Counted from the first letter of the stretch, positions 14,456 through 21,798 are shown. The stretch: DNA of 24,699 bases from Clostridia bacterium (GCA_017387165.1 JAFOFS010000250.1:1-24699); one strand, 5' to 3'. The notes: a model not told the origin generated them from the sequence alone. Program-made: numbers and translations.

Positions 14456-14500
14456 AAAAAGAACAAGGACTCGACCGCCCCTTTCGGGGAAGTCGAGTCC
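14456..14500 (-). terminator. Intrinsic terminator ending the Rnf-like/hydrolase operon
   Basis: Minus strand GGACTCGAC-TT-CCCC-GAAA-GGGG-CG-GTCGAGTCC followed by TTGTTCTTTTT, about 18 nt after the stop at 14519. Confidence 0.8.
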
Positions 14501-14518: not shown

Positions 14519-15691
14519 TCAGCCTTTCAAGGCGGCGAAATCGTAGCTGCCGTTGGCGGCATACACCACCACGGGACCGTCTCCGACCGCTTTCAGCATG
14601 GCCTTGATCTGGTTGGCGTTTTGTCCGTTCACGTTCAGCCACGGCAGCAGCGCGGGGGCGCTTTCGCCCAGCTCATCGGCGCGGAAGCGGATCTTCTCCA
14701 GCATCGCCTGCGTGCCGTTTTGCGGCAGCATCGGGGAGAGGAAATCGCCGCCGAACTTGAGCGGATTGTCGCTTCCGTAAATGGCGGTGTTGCTGCCGGT
14801 GGCGGATTCGCCTGCGCAGCAGAAGCTGAGCTCCATACCGGTCAAAGCGGTTTTCGCCTCGCTGACAAAGGTCTGCAGCACGGCGATCTCCGGCTTCTGC
14901 TGATTGGTCAGCGAGCTGTCGAAGAATGCCAGCTGACGCTGGAACGGGAACTGGACGCCGTCGTAGATGAGGGCGGTGAAGCCGACCTCCTGCAGCTCCT
15001 TGCCCAAGCCGACGAGATACTGACGGGCGCCGGGCTTGTACGGGTTGAGCCAGGTTTTGCCGCCCTTGTCGTAGGCGTTGTCCAGCCAATCGGTCATGGT
15101 GCCTTCGGCGTAATATTCGATGATGGCATCCATCGAGCGATAGGTGCGGTCATAAAAGGCGTACAGATAGCCGACCGCCAGCATATCCTGCTCCTCGCAG
15201 ACGGCAAGAAGCGCTTTGAGCTGCGCTTTGCTGACGGCGGTGGCGTGCACGCTGCCGGCTTTTTTGACGGTGTCGCTTTCCGCTTGGAAATACACCCGTC
15301 CGACCGTGTCCTTCAGCTCCAGCACCACGCCGTTGTAGCCGGCGGCTTTGGCGGCGGTCACCGTCTGCGCAAAGGCAGCGGTATCCCCCAGCGCCGACGG
15401 CGGCAGATAAACGGCACGCAGACCCGACAGGGATTTTTGCGGAGCGGGGGTGACGGTGGTCTGGGTGTTGGTCGTCGAAGCGGTGCTGTCGGTCGAGGTG
15501 GTGGAGGAGGGTGTGCTGACGTCGGGGGTGGTCTGCGGACGATTCAGCAGCCATTTACCGGCGAGCACGCCGAGCGCCACGATGCCGATACAGGCAACTA
15601 CGGCGCCGAGTGTTTTCCAGATCGGGGAACGCCGGCGGTAAGGATTGCGGCGCCGATAGGTGGGGCGCCGTTTGATTTTACGCGGTTTCAT
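14519..15691 (-). CDS. Membrane-anchored putative glycoside hydrolase-like TIM-barrel protein (DUF4015/GHL10-like, 390 aa)
   Basis: Arg-rich N-terminus, one TM helix, Ser/Thr-rich linker, then LRAVYL, GYNGVVLELKDTVGRVYF, WLNPY...ARQYL and GFTALIYDGVQFP, resembling DUF4015/GHL10 motifs; AAAGGAGG RBS overlaps the upstream stop. Confidence 0.65.
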   Translation of the reverse strand: MKPRKIKRRPTYRRRNPYRRRSPIWKTLGAVVACIGIVALGVLAGKWLLNRPQTTPDVSTPSSTTSTDSTASTTNTQTTVTPAPQKSLSGLRAVYLPPSALGDTAAFAQTVTAAKAAGYNGVVLELKDTVGRVYFQAESDTVKKAGSVHATAVSKAQLKALLAVCEEQDMLAVGYLYAFYDRTYRSMDAIIEYYAEGTMTDWLDNAYDKGGKTWLNPYKPGARQYLVGLGKELQEVGFTALIYDGVQFPFQRQLAFFDSSLTNQQKPEIAVLQTFVSEAKTALTGMELSFCCAGESATGSNTAIYGSDNPLKFGGDFLSPMLPQNGTQAMLEKIRFRADELGESAPALLPWLNVNGQNANQIKAMLKAVGDGPVVVYAANGSYDFAALKG

Positions 15692-15703
15692 CGTGACCCT
15701 CCT

Positions 15704-16288
15704 TTACATAAAGGAAATTGAGGACGAAAAGCCCAGCATCGCAAGCGCCATCAACCCAAACCACAGCAGGGTGACCGGCAGACCGCGAAAAGCGCGGGGC
15801 ATATCCGAATGATCCATCTGCTCGCGTGCCTCTGCCACCAGCAGGGACAGCAGGCAGAAGCCGACGCAGGCGCCGGCCGCCATACCGATCGCACCGAGCA
15901 GAGTGACCGCGATCTGGTGATTGGCGAGCAGGCAGACGCCCACAACGACGTTGTTGTACGCCGCCATCGGCAACCAAAGCTCCACCCGCTTGTACAGCGC
16001 AGGCAACGCTTTTTTGAGCAGCAGCACCGCCAGCAGATACAAGACGGTGACCGCCACGATAATCGCCAGCGGACGCAGATAGTGACCGCCTTTAAAGGTA
16101 AACAGCGGCAGCACGTAGAAGGTGCTGATGGTGGTCAGTACCGCAAACAGCAGCCTGGTACCCGAAAACCACAGCAATTCCTTCGGGCGTCGGGTGACGC
16201 GGAGAAGCAGCGAGGAACCGAAACCGGTGGATAACACGAGATTCGAGAACAGAGCCGCGGCTAAAAAGGTAAGAAGCAGTTCAAGCAT
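15704..16288 (-). CDS. RnfA/RsxA-like (Rnf-Nqr family) membrane protein, degenerate (194 aa)
   Basis: Six hydrophobic segments; NLVLSTGFG, WLPMAAYNNVVVG, EQMDHSDMPRAFRGLPVTLLWFGLMALAMLGF match the RnfA layout; ATG at 16288 with AAGGAGGTG RBS. Confidence 0.85.
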   Translation of the reverse strand: MLELLLTFLAAALFSNLVLSTGFGSSLLLRVTRRPKELLWFSGTRLLFAVLTTISTFYVLPLFTFKGGHYLRPLAIIVAVTVLYLLAVLLLKKALPALYKRVELWLPMAAYNNVVVGVCLLANHQIAVTLLGAIGMAAGACVGFCLLSLLVAEAREQMDHSDMPRAFRGLPVTLLWFGLMALAMLGFSSSISFM

Positions 16289-16961
16289 CCTCGCGCACCT
16301 CCTTATCCGGAACGAGCAGCTCGACCTCATCGAGATCGTCCGAACGGTGGCGACGGGACAGTCCCTGCAAGGCGGCGGCCATCAGACCGAGCAGAATGAA
16401 GGCGGCAAACGACTGCGCCGCTTCCGGCAGCGGCAGTGTGATGCCGACGGGGATATTCCAGATGGTGTTGCTCGCGACCAGCTCGCGCAGCGCGCTGACG
16501 ATCGCGATCACCAGTCCAAAGCCGAAGGCGGACGCGAGTGCGTCCATCATCGCGGCGGCAGGGCGGTTGCCGATCGAGAAGCCGCCGACGCGGTAGGTGA
16601 CGATGGTGTTGACCGCCATCAGCGGAATGAACAGATGCAGCTTGGCGTATAGCGCGGTGGAGATCCAGTGATCCAGCACCAGCGCCGTTCCGGCGAGCAG
16701 CACGGACGCCACGAGGGTATACAGCGCCGGTTGCAGCCAGTTGGCGAGCTTGCGACCGATCAGCGACATCAGCAGGCTGAGCGGCAGCAGCGTAATGAGG
16801 GTGCACAGCGCCAGTGCGACGCCGCTCTTGAGGTCGGCACCTGCCATAATGATGGGGCAGACGCCGATGGCCTGCACCAACACCAAATTGTTGCGCAGGG
16901 CGGTGTCAAAGAAGATGGAAGTCAGCTTCCATCCGCTGTGCGAAGCGGTAGGCTTATGCAT
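16281..16961 (-). CDS. RnfE/RsxE-like (Rnf-Nqr family) membrane protein, degenerate (226 aa)
   Basis: NNLVLVQAIGVCP, LHLFIPLMAVNTIV, GFGLVIAIVSALRELV, AAFILLGL match RnfE; GAGGTG RBS; overlaps neighbours by 8 nt. Confidence 0.88.
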   Translation of the reverse strand: MHKPTASHSGWKLTSIFFDTALRNNLVLVQAIGVCPIIMAGADLKSGVALALCTLITLLPLSLLMSLIGRKLANWLQPALYTLVASVLLAGTALVLDHWISTALYAKLHLFIPLMAVNTIVTYRVGGFSIGNRPAAAMMDALASAFGFGLVIAIVSALRELVASNTIWNIPVGITLPLPEAAQSFAAFILLGLMAAALQGLSRRHRSDDLDEVELLVPDKEVREDA

Positions 16962-17928
16962 GACGGCGCCACCTCACTTCCACAAAACGGTGCAGCTGCC
17001 AGGTCCAACGATCGATGATGGACGACAGCGGTCCCATCATCAGCACGGCAAAGCAGCCGCCGTCGGCGTACCGGCCGAAATGACGAAGCGCCATCACCGC
17101 CAGACCGAGCAGCGCGCCGAAGACGATACGGCCGCTGCGGTGGTGGGGGGTGGTGGTCGGGTCATTCAGGAAAAACACGCCTGTGAAAAGCAACGTGCCC
17201 GAGCAAAGCTCCAGCATCACGTTGTGCCAGTAGGTACTTTCCGCACGGGGGAACAGCAAGGCCAGAATCGTGCAGGTGATCATATAACTGACAAAGCCGG
17301 CCAGCGAAACGGTGCGGCGGAAGCGCAAAAACAGCAGGCAGGCGATCAGAACGATGATCGCCGTGGAGCCGATCGCTCCCGGCGTGCTGCCGAACAGCAG
17401 ATCGGTGAAGGTCTCAAACGAGGTGCCGCCGCTTTTGAGGGTGGCAGCGACCGAGTTCTGATAGAACACGTCGGAGGTATCCCACACCAGACGCAGGTTT
17501 TGCGACGGGTTGGGGTAGGCCGCCATCGACCGTTCAAAGCAGACGGTGACCAGCGCAACGCCGGCGGCGGCAGGGTTAAACAAATTGCGTCCGCTTCCGC
17601 CAAACGGCATCTTGGCGATCAGAATGGCAAAGGCGGAGGCCACGATCGGCACGTAGATCGGCACGATGGGGGACATCAGGAGTCCGATCAGACCGCCGGT
17701 CACAAAGGCGGTGCCGTCACCGAGGGTGATCCGCTTGCCGAAGAGCAGGCAGGCGAGTACTTCGCTGGCTACTGCCGCGGCGATGGCGATCAGCACCACG
17801 AAAACGGGACGGGGACCGTACTGCACCGCCGAGAAGACGGTCAAGGCCGCCACGGCGATCAGCACGTCAAAGGAATAGCTGATGACGCTTCGGCCTGCCC
17901 GAAGCGACGGGGTGATTATGGATTCCAC
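16954..17928 (-). CDS. RnfD/RsxD-like membrane protein, degenerate (324 aa, GTG start)
   Basis: DGTAFVTGGLIGL, AKMPFGGSGRNLFNPAAAG, PGAIGST, GVFFLNDPTTTP match RnfD/NqrB. GTG at 17928 with GGGGG RBS chosen over the ORF-track start at 18030, which lies deep inside rnfC. Confidence 0.88.
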   Translation of the reverse strand: MESIITPSLRAGRSVISYSFDVLIAVAALTVFSAVQYGPRPVFVVLIAIAAAVASEVLACLLFGKRITLGDGTAFVTGGLIGLLMSPIVPIYVPIVASAFAILIAKMPFGGSGRNLFNPAAAGVALVTVCFERSMAAYPNPSQNLRLVWDTSDVFYQNSVAATLKSGGTSFETFTDLLFGSTPGAIGSTAIIVLIACLLFLRFRRTVSLAGFVSYMITCTILALLFPRAESTYWHNVMLELCSGTLLFTGVFFLNDPTTTPHHRSGRIVFGALLGLAVMALRHFGRYADGGCFAVLMMGPLSSIIDRWTWQLHRFVEVRWRRHA

Positions 17929-19193
17929 GATTCGTCCCCCCAATTCACAAAAATGGTGCCCTCTGCCGATTCGCCCGCTTGCAGAACGGTTTGGGCAATG
18001 GGACGGTGAGCGGGACACACGGCGGAGCAAACGCCGCAGCCGTCACAGTCTTCGGGCTCTAAAGCAGTCAATCGTTCGTATTGCATATTTTCGTATCGCT
18101 TGGCGATCTCATACGGCAGCAGACCCTTGTGGCAGACGGCGGCGCATTGTCCGCAGCCGATGCAGCTGCGTACCCGATACGGAATGGGATCGCGCAGCGC
18201 CACCAGACAGGTCATACCCGGCAGGATGGGCAGCGAACGGTCGGTAATCTCCACGCCGGTCAGCGCATCACCGATGAGCAGCAGGCTGACGTTTTTGCCG
18301 ATGCCGCACGCTTGCAACGCATCCTCGATCGGGGTGCCGAACGGCACCTGCAGATTGTAGGAGGTTTCCAGCGCATCGCCGGCGACGGTGAGAAAACCGT
18401 CGATATGCGGAGCGCCGAATGCAACCGCGCGGTACAGCGCCAAGCACGCCTGTGTGCCGACAAAGCCGCATTTTCCCTCGTATTCGGAGGGCTCCTTGTT
18501 GAAAACGGGGTAACGACGACGTTTGATCTCGCGAATGTCGTTGGGGTCAAACTGCGCCGCCATTTTGCGAACGCGGGATTCGGCGGTGTGCAGCAGCAGA
18601 CGGGTCATCGGAATACCGGCGGCTTTAGCCGCCAGGCGCAGACCGATCAGCACCTGCCGTCCGTAGGCTTTCAGCACGGCGTAGGCGCACGACTGATACG
18701 GTTCCGCCTCGATGGCGTCCAGCAGCAGGCAGGGCGGCGTGTCGAAATCCGCCCAGGAGCGGAGCTTGGTATGCAGCTGCACGCCGTCCAGCTCATCGAC
18801 GATGCCTGCCTGATGACAGGCGGCGATGATCTGCTCGGCGGTGAGATCGTCCGGCATCTGCGGCAACGGCTCCTCCACCGGTTCTTCGGTGAGGATGCGG
18901 TCAACCGCCGAACAGGTCAGTTCTCCGTAGATCGGATGTTGAATGTGGGTCATACCGGCAACCACACCGGTCACCGAGCTGTACAGCGCCGCATCGTCTT
19001 GATCGGTCGGTTTGCCAAGCATACCGCCGCGTTCCACCGTGTCGTAATCCGCCACGACGGGGGTGAGGCGACGCACGTTGCCGTAGGTCAACGGCAGATA
19101 GACGCGCGAAACGTCGGTCAACACTTTAATGGGTCGATTGGGTGCCGAGCCTTTTTCCAAGGTCATCGGAATTCCGCGTTTGAAATCCTTCAT
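17916..19193 (-). CDS. RnfC/RsxC-like protein, degenerate, with two 4Fe-4S motifs (425 aa)
   Basis: N-terminal barrel-sandwich (VYLPL...YSSVTGVV), AGIV..., EAEPY, SLBB-like (TVAGDA...NLQVPFGTP), CIGCGQCAAVC and CDGCGVCSAVCP; AAAGGATGTG RBS. Confidence 0.88.
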   Translation of the reverse strand: MKDFKRGIPMTLEKGSAPNRPIKVLTDVSRVYLPLTYGNVRRLTPVVADYDTVERGGMLGKPTDQDDAALYSSVTGVVAGMTHIQHPIYGELTCSAVDRILTEEPVEEPLPQMPDDLTAEQIIAACHQAGIVDELDGVQLHTKLRSWADFDTPPCLLLDAIEAEPYQSCAYAVLKAYGRQVLIGLRLAAKAAGIPMTRLLLHTAESRVRKMAAQFDPNDIREIKRRRYPVFNKEPSEYEGKCGFVGTQACLALYRAVAFGAPHIDGFLTVAGDALETSYNLQVPFGTPIEDALQACGIGKNVSLLLIGDALTGVEITDRSLPILPGMTCLVALRDPIPYRVRSCIGCGQCAAVCHKGLLPYEIAKRYENMQYERLTALEPEDCDGCGVCSAVCPAHRPIAQTVLQAGESAEGTIFVNWGDESWNP

Positions 19194-19266
19194 CGGTGGT
19201 CACATCCTTTCGTGGGCATGCGGATTGTCCGTTGCATATCGTGAAAATAAAAGGGGGGATGCGCGG

Positions 19267-19596
19267 ATGGCAAAGCATACGGCGGGAAAGCTCCGGGTCG
19301 TTCGGGAACTTCGTCCGCTGGTGTATACCTTCGCAGACGGCGATGCGCTGCTGCAGCTGCTGGCGGCGTGCCGCAGCCGCGGTTGGGCGCTGCCGGCTGA
19401 CGAGTTGTGGTGGCGAGGAGATCGCTACAGCGCGGTGCTGACCGACCGCACGCCGTCGGCGGCAGGGTGGGCGCTGCTGGAGGAAACCGCCGTTTTAAGC
19501 GGTTGGGGAAACGCGGCGGCCGAAGCGGTCCGCTGCGGTATTTGTCTTACAGACGGTGGAACTGTTCTACCAGAGCGACCGGATCCGCCGCTTTAA
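19267..19596 (+). CDS. Small protein resembling the C-terminal domain of the ClpC adaptor MecA (109 aa)
   Basis: AAGGGGGG RBS 8 nt before ATG 19267; GC3-rich codon usage; LVYTFADGDALLQL...ELWWRGDRYSAVL...LLEETA...RCGICL resembles the MecA CTD pattern (by eye only). Confidence 0.55.
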   Translation: MAKHTAGKLRVVRELRPLVYTFADGDALLQLLAACRSRGWALPADELWWRGDRYSAVLTDRTPSAAGWALLEETAVLSGWGNAAAEAVRCGICLTDGGTVLPERPDPPL

Positions 19597-20191
19597 ACAG
19601 AGCACTGCCTGCCACGACGATATCCACGCCTGCCTCTGCGCAGAGCGGAGCGGTATCCGCCGCCACGCCGCCGTCCACCTGCACGGGAACGTTCAGGCCG
19701 CGACGCGCGCATTCCGCCTTGATGGCGGCCACCTTGGGCAGCATATCCGCCATAAACGCCTGTCCGCCAAAGCCGGGCTCCACCGTCATCACCAGCACCA
19801 GCGACAGCTTGTCGAGGTAGGGGAACACCGCCTCTGCAGGGGTGCGAGGCTTGACGGTCAGCGCCGCCTTTTTCCCCAGCGCCAGAATGGCGTCGATGGT
19901 GGCGGCAATATCGGCGTCGCTTTCGACGTGGAAATTGATGATGTCGGCGCCGGCGTCGGCAAACGCCCGGATCAGACGATCGGGATGCTGCATCATCAGA
20001 TGGACGTCAAAGGTCAGATCGGTCAGCGGTCGCAAGGTTGCGATGACGGGCGGACCGAAGCTCAAATTGGGCACGAATACACCGTCCATCACGTCCAGAT
20101 GGATCATATCGGCGCCGCTTTGCTCCACAAAACGGACAACCTCGGCAAGGTGGGTGTAATCGCAATTGAGGATGGAGGGGGAAACCTGCAT
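19547..20191 (-). CDS. rpe: Ribulose-phosphate 3-epimerase
   Basis: SPSILN, IHLDVMDGVFVPNLSFG, FDVHLM, VMTVEPGFGGQ, VQVDGGV, VAGSA motifs. Confidence 0.98.
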   Translation of the reverse strand: MQVSPSILNCDYTHLAEVVRFVEQSGADMIHLDVMDGVFVPNLSFGPPVIATLRPLTDLTFDVHLMMQHPDRLIRAFADAGADIINFHVESDADIAATIDAILALGKKAALTVKPRTPAEAVFPYLDKLSLVLVMTVEPGFGGQAFMADMLPKVAAIKAECARRGLNVPVQVDGGVAADTAPLCAEAGVDIVVAGSALFKAADPVALVEQFHRL

Positions 20192-20208: not shown

Positions 20209-21798
20209 TTATATAATACTATTTAATATACCGTTCAAATCGTCGTAACGCGGCTCAAGCAGGTGTTCACCGAAGCGGTCGAGATACCGCGTCTGCATCG
20301 CGGCAGCGGTGGCGCCGGCAATATCCGCGCGGGGGTTATCCCCGACGTACACGCAATCCTCGGTCGGCAGACCCATTCGCCACGCGACGCGTCGGAACAG
20401 TTCGGGATTCGGCTTCTGGACCCCCTCGTCACCTGCCACCACGACCGCGTCCACCTCGCCGGCGAGGGCGGCGTGGTACAGCTTGCGATTTTGCAGGAAG
20501 GAATGTCCGTTGGTGAGGATGCCGACCTTCAGCCCTGCCGCTCGCAATCTACGCAGGGTGGGGACGGTGTCCGCAAAAACCTGCACGCAGGGGGCAAAAA
20601 GGCGATGGCAGAGACGGATCAATTCCTCGGTATCGTGGGACAAGCCCCAGCGCTGCTTGATATCCTCAAACAGCACCCGATAGGGGATGTCGATGTTATC
20701 CCGCGGCCAAAAGCCGCGTCCGCAGCCGCCGGCTTCCCACAGCGCGTGCGCTTTGGCGTCACGCTCCTCCTGCGGAGCGTCGGGGAACAGGCGGTTGACA
20801 AACAAAACGGAAAACTGCCGCCACGCTTCCACGCGGCTGTGCAGGGTGTCGTCAAAATCAAACCAGACCGCACGGATGGTTCCCTGCGGACGGTACATCT
20901 CCCGTACGGCGGCGACGTCGGCGGCCACCTGCGCAAACAGCGCGTCGGTATCCGCAAACTGCCGCTCCTCGCGGAGCAAGCGCACGGGGTACACGGTGAT
21001 CTCCTTGCCGTACGCTTCTTCCGCAAAATCCAGCAGATGCGTTTCGGCAAGCGGTGTGTCAGCGCCGACCGTCGGCTTGATGCCGATGTTGGTGACGCCG
21101 ACGTAGGATTTTCCGTCCACCACCGCAACCGAGGCGTACACGCCGAATTTCGGCAACGCCGCATCGGGCGGAAGCGGTTGGTTGAGGGTGGGAAAGCCTG
21201 CCGTCCGACCGAGGCGATTGCCGGCGGTGACGGGGGCGGTGATGCCGTAGCTGTGACCGAGCAGACGGGAAGCCTCCTGCATCTCGCCCTCCGCCAGCAA
21301 GCGGCGGATGCGGGCGGAGCTGATCGGCTGGTCGCCGTCCAACACGGTCGGTACCGCCAGCACCTCAATGCCGAGCGGTCGGCAAAGCGCGGTGAGCAGG
21401 GTCACGTCCCCTGCCGCCTCCGCGCCGAAGCGGAAATTTTCGCCGCAGGCGACCCGTTTGGCGCGCAGCGCACCGTGCAGCACGTCCCGTACGAATTGCG
21501 CAGGGGAAAGACTTCGAACGGCGGAGAATTCCATTTCGACCGTCTGCTCGATGCCGAGACGGGACAACCACAACTGTTTCTGGCGGTCGGGTTCAATCGG
21601 CAGAGCGGATTTCGGCAGCGTATGCGGCGAATCGGAAAACGTGAGCACCGTCGGGGTGAGTCCCTCCACTGCCACCACCTGACCGATCACCTCGCGGTGA
21701 GCCAGATGAACGCCGTCAAACACGCCGATCGCCACCGCGCGATCCACCGGCGGCAAGGCCGCCGCTTCGGACGGGAAACGATACGCGTTCAACAGCAT
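20209..21798 (-). CDS. ribF: Bifunctional riboflavin kinase/FAD synthetase RibF fused to a C-terminal HAD-superfamily hydrolase (529 aa)
   Basis: GVFDGVHLAH, GENFRFG, ISSARIR, GRTAGFPTLN, GIKPTV, ETHLLDF, then in frame DFDDTL, LTNG, KPNP, GDNPRAD (HAD motifs I-IV); follows truB. TTG at 21792 is an alternative start with better RBS spacing. Confidence 0.93.
   Translation of the reverse strand: MLLNAYRFPSEAAALPPVDRAVAIGVFDGVHLAHREVIGQVVAVEGLTPTVLTFSDSPHTLPKSALPIEPDRQKQLWLSRLGIEQTVEMEFSAVRSLSPAQFVRDVLHGALRAKRVACGENFRFGAEAAGDVTLLTALCRPLGIEVLAVPTVLDGDQPISSARIRRLLAEGEMQEASRLLGHSYGITAPVTAGNRLGRTAGFPTLNQPLPPDAALPKFGVYASVAVVDGKSYVGVTNIGIKPTVGADTPLAETHLLDFAEEAYGKEITVYPVRLLREERQFADTDALFAQVAADVAAVREMYRPQGTIRAVWFDFDDTLHSRVEAWRQFSVLFVNRLFPDAPQEERDAKAHALWEAGGCGRGFWPRDNIDIPYRVLFEDIKQRWGLSHDTEELIRLCHRLFAPCVQVFADTVPTLRRLRAAGLKVGILTNGHSFLQNRKLYHAALAGEVDAVVVAGDEGVQKPNPELFRRVAWRMGLPTEDCVYVGDNPRADIAGATAAAMQTRYLDRFGEHLLEPRYDDLNGILNSII

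Follow-up and report, generated by a model that had tools for sequence, protein, structure and literature searches.

The closest described relatives of the locus reported here are the Rnf complex, for which structures are available from A. woodii (9ERI), C. tetanomorphum (7ZC6) and A. vinelandii (8AHX), and Na+-NQR (NqrABCDEF). Rnf is usually treated as an all-or-none energy-conserving module, encoded in its canonical form by rnfCDGEAB. The window analyzed in this work, a stretch of 24,699 nucleotides from a cattle-gut Clostridia bacterium (GCA_017387165.1, JAFOFS010000250.1:1-24699), contains at positions 14519–19193 an operon of five collinear minus-strand genes. Four of them code for RnfC-, RnfD-, RnfE- and RnfA-like proteins (hereafter C′, D′, E′ and A′) and the fifth for a DUF4015 protein. 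In agreement with the original prediction, which had been made from the DNA sequence of the window, neither rnfG nor rnfB is present inside the cluster. Because this stripped cluster is conserved while two subunits and most of the electron-carrying sites have been lost, it is a selected working machine with a non-respiratory use.

All four Rnf-like proteins exceed the Pfam gathering thresholds (D′ with 224.7 bits for PF03116, E′ and A′ with 100 and 68.4 bits for PF02508, and C′ with 35.8 bits for RnfC_N). Functional residues were defined from the structure paper on A. woodii Rnf (PMC11889175) and mapped through HMMER alignments to the PDB chains 9eri, 7zc6 and 8ahx, together with family alignments of ∼35 clusters without G and B and ∼20 canonical clusters. 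C′ (17916–19193, minus strand; 425 aa) comprises an RnfC_N domain and two Fer4 motifs, and its AlphaFold2 (AF2) model (predicted local distance difference test score, pLDDT, of 82) superposes on RnfC with template modeling (TM) scores of 0.78–0.79 and on NqrA with scores of 0.55–0.61. The loop that binds flavin mononucleotide (FMN) and NADH (GMGGAGFPT) is replaced throughout the stripped family by a new conserved motif, (I/V)DE(L/I)DG, which in the window reads DELDG-VQLHT, and the ECEPY motif reads EAEPY, again family-wide. Both CxxCxxCxxxC motifs of C′ are retained, and the eight [4Fe-4S] cysteines (C344, C347, C350, C354, C383, C386, C389 and C393) do not vary among 24 sequences.

In D′ (16954–17928, minus strand; 324 aa, GTG start), the flavinylated threonine (T156 in A. 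woodii) is lost, SGAT having become S-x-A-(A/G/S) in the stripped clade, and the next threonine of the window protein (SVAATL) varies even among congeners. The riboflavin ligands are retained, namely the Asn of NPA and the Asp of (T/N)D(Y/P) (LNDP here), which by alignment correspond to N123 and D249 of A. woodii, and from these residues the D′ pocket is predicted to bind riboflavin. The ligands are present in every C′-bearing reduced cluster except the long-branch L044 and L042, and the Asn is replaced in the clade that lacks C′ (L010, L031 and L032). The loss of C′ and the loss of the riboflavin ligands co-vary, which, as a single evolutionary event, is no more than suggestive. E′ (16281–16961, minus strand; 226 aa, with an acidic C-terminal tail) keeps one [2Fe-2S] cysteine, C25 of the GVCP motif, and has Thr in place of C108. 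In A′ (15704–16288, minus strand; 194 aa with the ATG at 16288 as start), Ser replaces C25 and Asn replaces C113, both cysteines being gone family-wide, so one of the four A/E ligands is left. The Na+-gating ion pair is also altered in the window, with Gln at E′ R67, Gly at E′ E115 and Val at A′ E88 (A. woodii numbering); A′ E88 is lost in the whole core stripped clade and E′ R67 and E115 in the subclade of the window.

Since G, B, the NADH/FMN site, the covalent FMN site, the [2Fe-2S] center and the ion pair have all been lost, the cluster cannot act as a ferredoxin:NAD+ oxidoreductase or as a redox-driven Na+ pump. The changes in the C loop, in the flavinylation motif of D and in three of the four A/E cysteines had been described in the original prediction for this operon and recur in the ∼35 related clusters. 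The term ‘cofactor-stripped’, which it used for them, is too strong: it fits the FMN/NAD loop, the flavinyl threonine and the [2Fe-2S] center, but the eight Fe-S cysteines of C′ and the riboflavin ligands of D′ are still in place, and the cofactor segment that appears from the alignments to be retained leads from two [4Fe-4S] clusters to riboflavin.

The fate of the ion pair bears on one alternative, that the A/E inverted-repeat pair and the ten-helix D form a cofactor-free channel or carrier for ions or solutes which operates independently of the DUF4015 protein. In Rnf, the A/E pair provides the alternating-access Na+ path (PMC11889175), and the folds and many transmembrane motifs are retained here, with a membrane trio that is common to all variants. 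However, neither the R67–E115–E88 network nor the Na+-binding residues adjacent to the cluster are conserved, nothing points to a substrate, and a channel would account neither for the invariant Fe-S motifs of C′ nor for its close coupling with DUF4015. We consider a channel of this kind unlikely.

The genome is a metagenome-assembled genome (MAG) of 1.57 Mb in 375 contigs and is 87% complete. The possibility raised in the original prediction, that it encodes a separate canonical operon, turned out to be correct: on contig C198, rnfC-D-G-E-A-B precedes an ApbE gene, and the D, G, E, A and B genes of this genome are found there. With the curated NCBIfam cut-offs (TIGR01945, TIGR01946, TIGR01948 and TIGR01943), the canonical C and E of the genome score above threshold (497 and 248 bits), and the four proteins of the window all score below it (168.7 bits for C′ with a cut-off of 245.95, 166.5 for D′ with 207.05, 68.3 for E′ with 213.4 and 88.3 for A′ with 229.3). 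Energy conservation appears to be left to the canonical rnfCDGEAB-apbE operon.

The presence of RnfG, RnfB and ApbE elsewhere in the genome allows for the cluster being a second genuine Rnf to which the operon on C198 lends its RnfG and RnfB, and A′ does retain the equivalents of K32 and R154, which in A. woodii RnfA are cytoplasmic and face RnfB (PMC11889175). Such borrowing is nevertheless most improbable, as the sites fed by G and B are gone (a single [2Fe-2S] cysteine of four, no FMN-carrying threonine in D and no FMN loop in C) and the four proteins fall below the curated thresholds. INDEPENDENCE from canonical Rnf is seen in G033 (a closed genome, 99% complete), G030 (98%) and G024 (79%), in which the single RnfD homolog is of the stripped kind. 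No FMN_bind domain was found anywhere in these three genomes, and no ApbE in G033 and G030. The cluster is therefore independent of RnfG or of flavinylation in trans, and complementation by canonical RnfG and RnfB is contradicted both by the lost acceptor sites and by the genomes without canonical Rnf. That some genomes carrying the cluster lack RnfG and ApbE altogether also supports the proposal of a non-respiratory Rnf derivative under selection. As a separate observation, the canonical RnfE on C198 (L049:6468-7154) and those of L058, L059, L060, L062, L064 and L012 have a Cys-rich C-terminal tail (e.g. GCSGHCADCGSASPDC), which is lacking in the remaining RnfE proteins of the order and may represent an additional site for a metal or an Fe-S cluster.

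The nearest relatives of D′ form a distinct set of ∼48 clusters with 39–99% identity, followed by a sharp fall to ∼29% for canonical RnfD. The arrangement rpe–mecA (divergent)–C′D′E′A′–DUF4015 is found in all 11 of the 11 species genomes of the genus, and a canonical rnf operon is also present in all of them but G009 (84% complete). The arrangement is shared by further genera of the family and by families f7, f10, f11 and f15 of the order; with f1, the cluster is present in at least five families. The counts of an order-wide Pfam survey are lower bounds rather than an exact prevalence. The ratios of nonsynonymous to synonymous substitution rates (dN/dS, Nei–Gojobori method, NG86) of C′, D′, E′ and A′ are 0.11–0.29 in nine pairs with dS of 0.65–1.7; for comparison, they are 0.07–0.15 for Rpe and 0.23–0.48 for DUF4015. 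Constraint on the stripped cluster is relaxed yet clearly present, and purifying selection has retained four full-length subunits of Rnf fold, their Fe-S motifs and riboflavin residues, and the coupling to DUF4015.

The relaxed constraint could be read as the decay of a functionless remnant of a duplicated or replaced rnf operon, and E′ and A′ do evolve much faster than their canonical counterparts (between G000 and G001, A′ is 37% identical and canonical A 74%, E′ 36% and canonical E 58%). This explanation is very hard to sustain in view of the dN/dS values given above. With the exception of one TAA codon in the match from G012, every genome studied has intact frames, conserved motifs have newly emerged (DELDG, LNDP and NPAAAG), translational coupling is preserved, and the stripped sequences form a deep clade of 21 members. 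Pseudogenisation was rejected on the dN/dS values and the intact frames, and the claim of selection rather than decay holds, with values not near 1 and retention across the genus and several families.

Two further features of the stripped family were noted. In one genome of the family (G013, 3.7 Mb; L048, L060 and L061) there are three RnfD homologs, which belong to a stripped cluster, to an RnfC-D-E-A-B locus with no RnfG detected (L060) and to a fragment-like C-D-G locus. The E′ proteins of distant stripped clusters (L030:5801-6919, L031:8125-9459, L035:7857-9374 and L010:6929-8035) carry low-complexity extensions of 100–300 aa, which are N-terminal and rich in Lys, Ala and Glu in L030 and L035, and C-terminal, acidic and repetitive in L010, L031 and L032.

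In an IQ-TREE phylogeny of RnfD, the 21 stripped sequences form one deeply diverged clade with support values of 100/99 (ultrafast bootstrap, UFBoot, and Shimodaira–Hasegawa-like approximate likelihood ratio test, SH-aLRT). Canonical RnfD copies that share genomes with stripped ones fall into two other well-supported clades, one of which groups with Lachnospiraceae-labelled sequences (100/99). Upon outgroup rooting, the stripped clade is placed at the tip of a grade of the single-copy canonical RnfDs of the order, with weak support for the backbone. In G027 a canonical rnfCDGEAB operon lies exactly between rpe and DUF4015, and in G026 DUF4015 follows a canonical rnfCDGEAB operon at a distance of 39 nt. 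The linkage of DUF4015 and rpe to rnf is older than the loss of G and B, and the stripped operon is suggested to be a positional descendant of a resident rpe–rnf–DUF4015 locus; given the weak support for where this clade is rooted, its origin from the resident rnf lineage is only suggested. Locus L035 (G030) looks like a younger and possibly independent loss of G and B. Other reduced Rnf-like clusters occur in the order, including C-D-B trios without G, E and A in L071 (G095) and L073 (G134), a C-D pair in L075 (G108), a very divergent C-D-G-E-A-B cluster in L067 (G042), and a degenerate C-D-(gap)-E-A-B cluster in L072 (G144) in which G was not detected. In all five the flavinyl threonine and the FMN loop of C are gone and the riboflavin ligands are retained.

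The last gene of the operon (14519–15691, minus strand) encodes a bitopic DUF4015 protein of 390 aa, which is composed of an Arg-rich cytoplasmic tail (residues 1–24), a transmembrane helix (∼25–49), a disordered Ser/Thr linker and a domain on the outside of the membrane (89–390). The match to PF13200 (73.2 bits, cut-off 27) covers only profile positions 1–190; in the AF2 model (pLDDT 80.5), residues 89–390 form a full (β/α)8 barrel. This domain matches Cthe_0052 (PDB 4S1A) by sequence (E-value 1e-9) and, as the top hit, by fold. The second-best fold match is Cwp19 of C. difficile, a peptidoglycan lytic transglycosylase with a GHL10 barrel (PMC6016235, PMC5765458), followed by hexosaminidases of glycoside hydrolase family 20 (GH20) and a dispersin. 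Judging from the modeled fold, the substrate class is likely to be a wall polymer of N-acetylglucosamine (GlcNAc) type, and the putative catalytic Asp (YDGVQFP, aligned to Cwp19 and 4s1a) is present in the window. Conservation is 0.34 for the tail, 0.30 for the transmembrane helix and 0.34 for the barrel, and 0.20 for the linker. Among 41 relatives, 26 genomes have the gene, as a single copy, and in 18 of these it comes immediately after an Rnf-type cluster (16 stripped, 2 canonical). The operon had been proposed to serve envelope or spore biology, and the Cwp19-like fold strengthens the first part of this proposal. The second has no support beyond the SpoIVA gene of the genome; a search of the incomplete MAG (87%) for Spo0A_C was negative, and nothing links the operon to sporulation.

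Our tentatively preferred reading, which is possible though short of probable, is that the membrane module partners or controls a wall glycanase, with the Fe-S clusters and riboflavin as redox input. D′, E′ and A′ would constitute a membrane platform on which the single N-in helix and the Arg-rich tail of the DUF4015 protein would dock, and docking would position or switch the wall-glycan-cleaving domain on the outside. In clusters with C′, the platform would be informed of the redox state of the cytoplasm by the Fe-S clusters of C′ and the riboflavin of D′. The topology of the DUF4015 protein (N-in, one helix, outside domain) is the same as that of the lost RnfG, and D′E′A′ and DUF4015 persist without C′ in L010 and L032. 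The platform-for-glycanase reading is favored because the D′E′A′ trio, usually accompanied by the bitopic DUF4015 protein, is the part common to all variants, and C′, with its Fe-S motifs, and the riboflavin ligands are either both found or both missing. A pairing of the acidic E′ tail with the Arg-rich DUF4015 tail was also considered and rejected, the acidic C-terminal tail not being conserved in the family. In a more specific form of the proposal, which we regard as rather doubtful, the cluster would be a redox-gated controller of wall remodeling in which the Fe-S/riboflavin segment senses ferredoxin or the redox state and D′E′A′ switches the outside DUF4015 glycanase. If this were true, wall cleavage in growth, separation or autolysis would be tied to the energy state of quinone-less gut Clostridia.

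Several observations weigh against a platform for a glycanase. The fold similarity to Cwp19 is moderate (TM-score of ∼0.5), with GH20 hexosaminidases scoring alike, and the putative catalytic Asp is replaced by Thr in six congeners, so hydrolysis cannot be taken for granted. Biased composition may account for part of the conservation seen in the tail and the transmembrane helix. DUF4015 is also found 3′ of complete canonical rnfCDGEAB operons (G026 and G027), is absent from the stripped clusters L016/L017, L031 and L044, occupies a different place in the genomes G020 and G036, and occurs in G037, a genome devoid of RnfD. The tight operon linkage of DUF4015 stressed in the original prediction is therefore real but not special to the stripped state. 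We infer the contact between D′E′A′ and the DUF4015 protein, and their linkage in the operon may be inherited synteny only. Finally, the retained Fe-S and riboflavin ligands suit catalytic electron transfer equally well as sensing.

This last point leads to a shortened electron-transfer enzyme, in which electrons from a cytoplasmic donor such as ferredoxin would pass through the two [4Fe-4S] clusters of C′ to the riboflavin of D′ and on to some membrane-soluble or extracellular acceptor, for example a free flavin that occupies the old FMN pocket without a covalent bond, with E′ and A′ being structural only and DUF4015 an unrelated passenger. The invariance of the eight Fe-S cysteines would be accounted for, as would the retention of the riboflavin Asn and Asp in nearly all C′-bearing clusters and their loss in the C′-less clade. 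The C-D-B trios and C-D pairs of the order (L071, L073 and L075) suggest that C and D form a functional unit, and in NQR the acceptor receives its electrons from riboflavin in the RnfD homolog, the final cofactor of the chain (PMC12174285). An acceptor is, however, not evident among the neighboring genes, and a self-made, NQR-like quinone is unlikely because no UbiA-type prenyltransferase was found in the five genomes searched. The outward FMN site has no covalent anchor, the stripped-only genomes G033 and G030 are without ApbE, and D′E′A′ are under apparent constraint where both C′ and the riboflavin Asn are missing (L010, L031 and L032). A shortened enzyme is, in our view, rather unlikely. 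In a more radical and likewise doubtful variant, C′ and D′ would supply the membrane flavin reductase that is still missing from the extracellular riboflavin shuttle of Faecalibacterium.

Literature searches on DUF4015, partial Rnf clusters, Rnf paralogs and sporulation, and Faecalibacterium, Rnf and extracellular electron transfer retrieved no description of the cluster, in line with the original prediction, which knew of no functional account. In public records the proteins are annotated as ordinary ‘RnfABCDGE subunit C/D/E/A’. Because of these labels, a second Rnf may be counted when the metabolism of gut and rumen Clostridia is reconstructed, or a sole ‘Rnf’ in genomes such as G033 and G030, where none can work. 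The carriers are organisms of interest for rumen and gut health, and in this widespread and conserved but uncharacterised family the capabilities of the Rnf/Nqr membrane core without its cofactors can be studied as a natural experiment. Either control of a wall glycanase or a new electron acceptor, if true, would give a new function to a respiratory scaffold that is among the oldest.

The expression signals of the operon agree with the original prediction of five coupled genes with ribosome-binding sites and a single terminator ahead of the promoter of the division and cell wall (dcw) genes, and its coordinates were confirmed. Two starts were corrected: D′ begins with GTG at 17928 behind GGGGGGA and not with TTG at 18030, and A′ with ATG at 16288 behind AAGGAGGTG. 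C′ and D′ overlap by 13 nt, D′ and E′ by 8 nt, and E′ and A′ by 8 nt; the DUF4015 gene starts 12 nt past A′ with a strong ribosome-binding site (AAAGGAGGG), and each of the five starts is preceded by a Shine–Dalgarno sequence. A promoter-like site (TTGCCA-18-TATTTT, 9/12, a consensus match only) lies 5′ of rnfC′ at 19244–19273 on the minus strand, and the intrinsic terminator at 14456–14500 (minus strand) consists of a stem-loop, GGACTCGAC...GTCGAGTCC, and a T-run. The stretch recurs in at least 20 metagenome runs from the gut, mostly bovine, in ∼10 studies, which excludes an assembly artefact. Contigs of 217–263 nt with at least 99% identity from three RNA-library runs map to E′, the D′/E′ junction and A′; they are weak evidence that the operon is transcribed, as their strand is not stated and DNA carry-over is possible.

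Directly past the terminator is the promoter of mraZ (TTGCAA-17-TATAAT, 14385–14357, minus strand). The proposed synteny with mraZ and dcw did not extend far: it is confined to the three closest genomes (that of the window, G004 and G003), downstream genes differ elsewhere, and a functional link was rejected. The conserved neighbors are rpe and the divergent mecA. On the upstream side, the order is the MecA-like gene (19267–19596, plus strand; 109 aa), divergent from rnfC′ and with no functional tie to it shown, then rpe, encoding ribulose-phosphate 3-epimerase (19547–20191, minus strand), which is found upstream of stripped and some canonical clusters, and then a ribF-HAD fusion. The MecA-like gene is of 109 aa in the window and in L008 and of ∼200 aa (full PF05389) in the congeners L013 and L051–L056, and the short form is apparently reduced to the C-terminal domain. 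The fusion (20209–21798, minus strand) is a single open reading frame of 529 aa with FAD synthetase, riboflavin kinase and HAD phosphatase domains assigned by Pfam. It is located two genes upstream of a cluster with a riboflavin-pocket D′, an adjacency not seen in L013 or L016.

When the stripped cluster is compared with Rnf, the common ground is four homologous subunits (PF13375/Fer4, PF03116 and twice PF02508), the gene order C-D-(G)-E-A, the RnfC fold of C′, the two [4Fe-4S] motifs and the riboflavin ligands. The cluster differs from Rnf in lacking G and B, the FMN/NADH loop, the flavinyl threonine, three of the four [2Fe-2S] cysteines and the ion pair, in having a DUF4015 ectoprotein as its fifth gene, and in occurring beside or without canonical Rnf. 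Na+-NQR offers a precedent in NqrA, an RnfC homolog that lost its cofactors, and in the riboflavin of NqrB, which is the last station of its chain (PMC12174285). Unlike NqrA, which has no Fe-S clusters, C′ retains them, whereas NqrD/E keep the [2Fe-2S] cysteines and NqrB the flavinyl threonine; genes for NqrF (FAD/2Fe-2S) and NqrC are absent from the cluster. The ‘NQR/RNF-like’ partial systems of Meheust et al. (2021, eLife, PMC8238504) are likewise partial Rnf/Nqr-derived clusters with a proposed non-canonical role. They are, however, RnfD–NqrF fusions with ApbE and FMN-binding partners from Actinobacteria and the Candidate Phyla Radiation (CPR) and depend on flavinylation, which is lost in the stripped cluster, where there is also no NqrF domain.

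The DUF4015 protein shares the outside (β/α)8 barrel with Cwp19 (GHL10) and with Cthe_0052 (4S1A, DUF4015). It differs from Cwp19 in belonging to PF13200 and not to GHL10/PF02638, and in being anchored by a transmembrane helix and an Arg-rich tail instead of cell-wall-binding repeats. The arrangement that we tentatively favor, a membrane module that partners or controls a wall glycanase, has its nearest counterpart in FtsEX, a membrane complex of transporter type that no longer transports and governs an extracytoplasmic peptidoglycan hydrolase. The likeness would be one of logic only, a transporter-derived complex that controls wall hydrolases on the outside, and it is put forward as a hypothesis. 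There is no homology between the two, and FtsEX is driven by ATP, whereas the possible input here is redox, through Fe-S clusters and riboflavin. If the cluster is indeed a redox-gated controller of wall remodeling, it would be the first counterpart of FtsEX to be derived from a respiratory complex.

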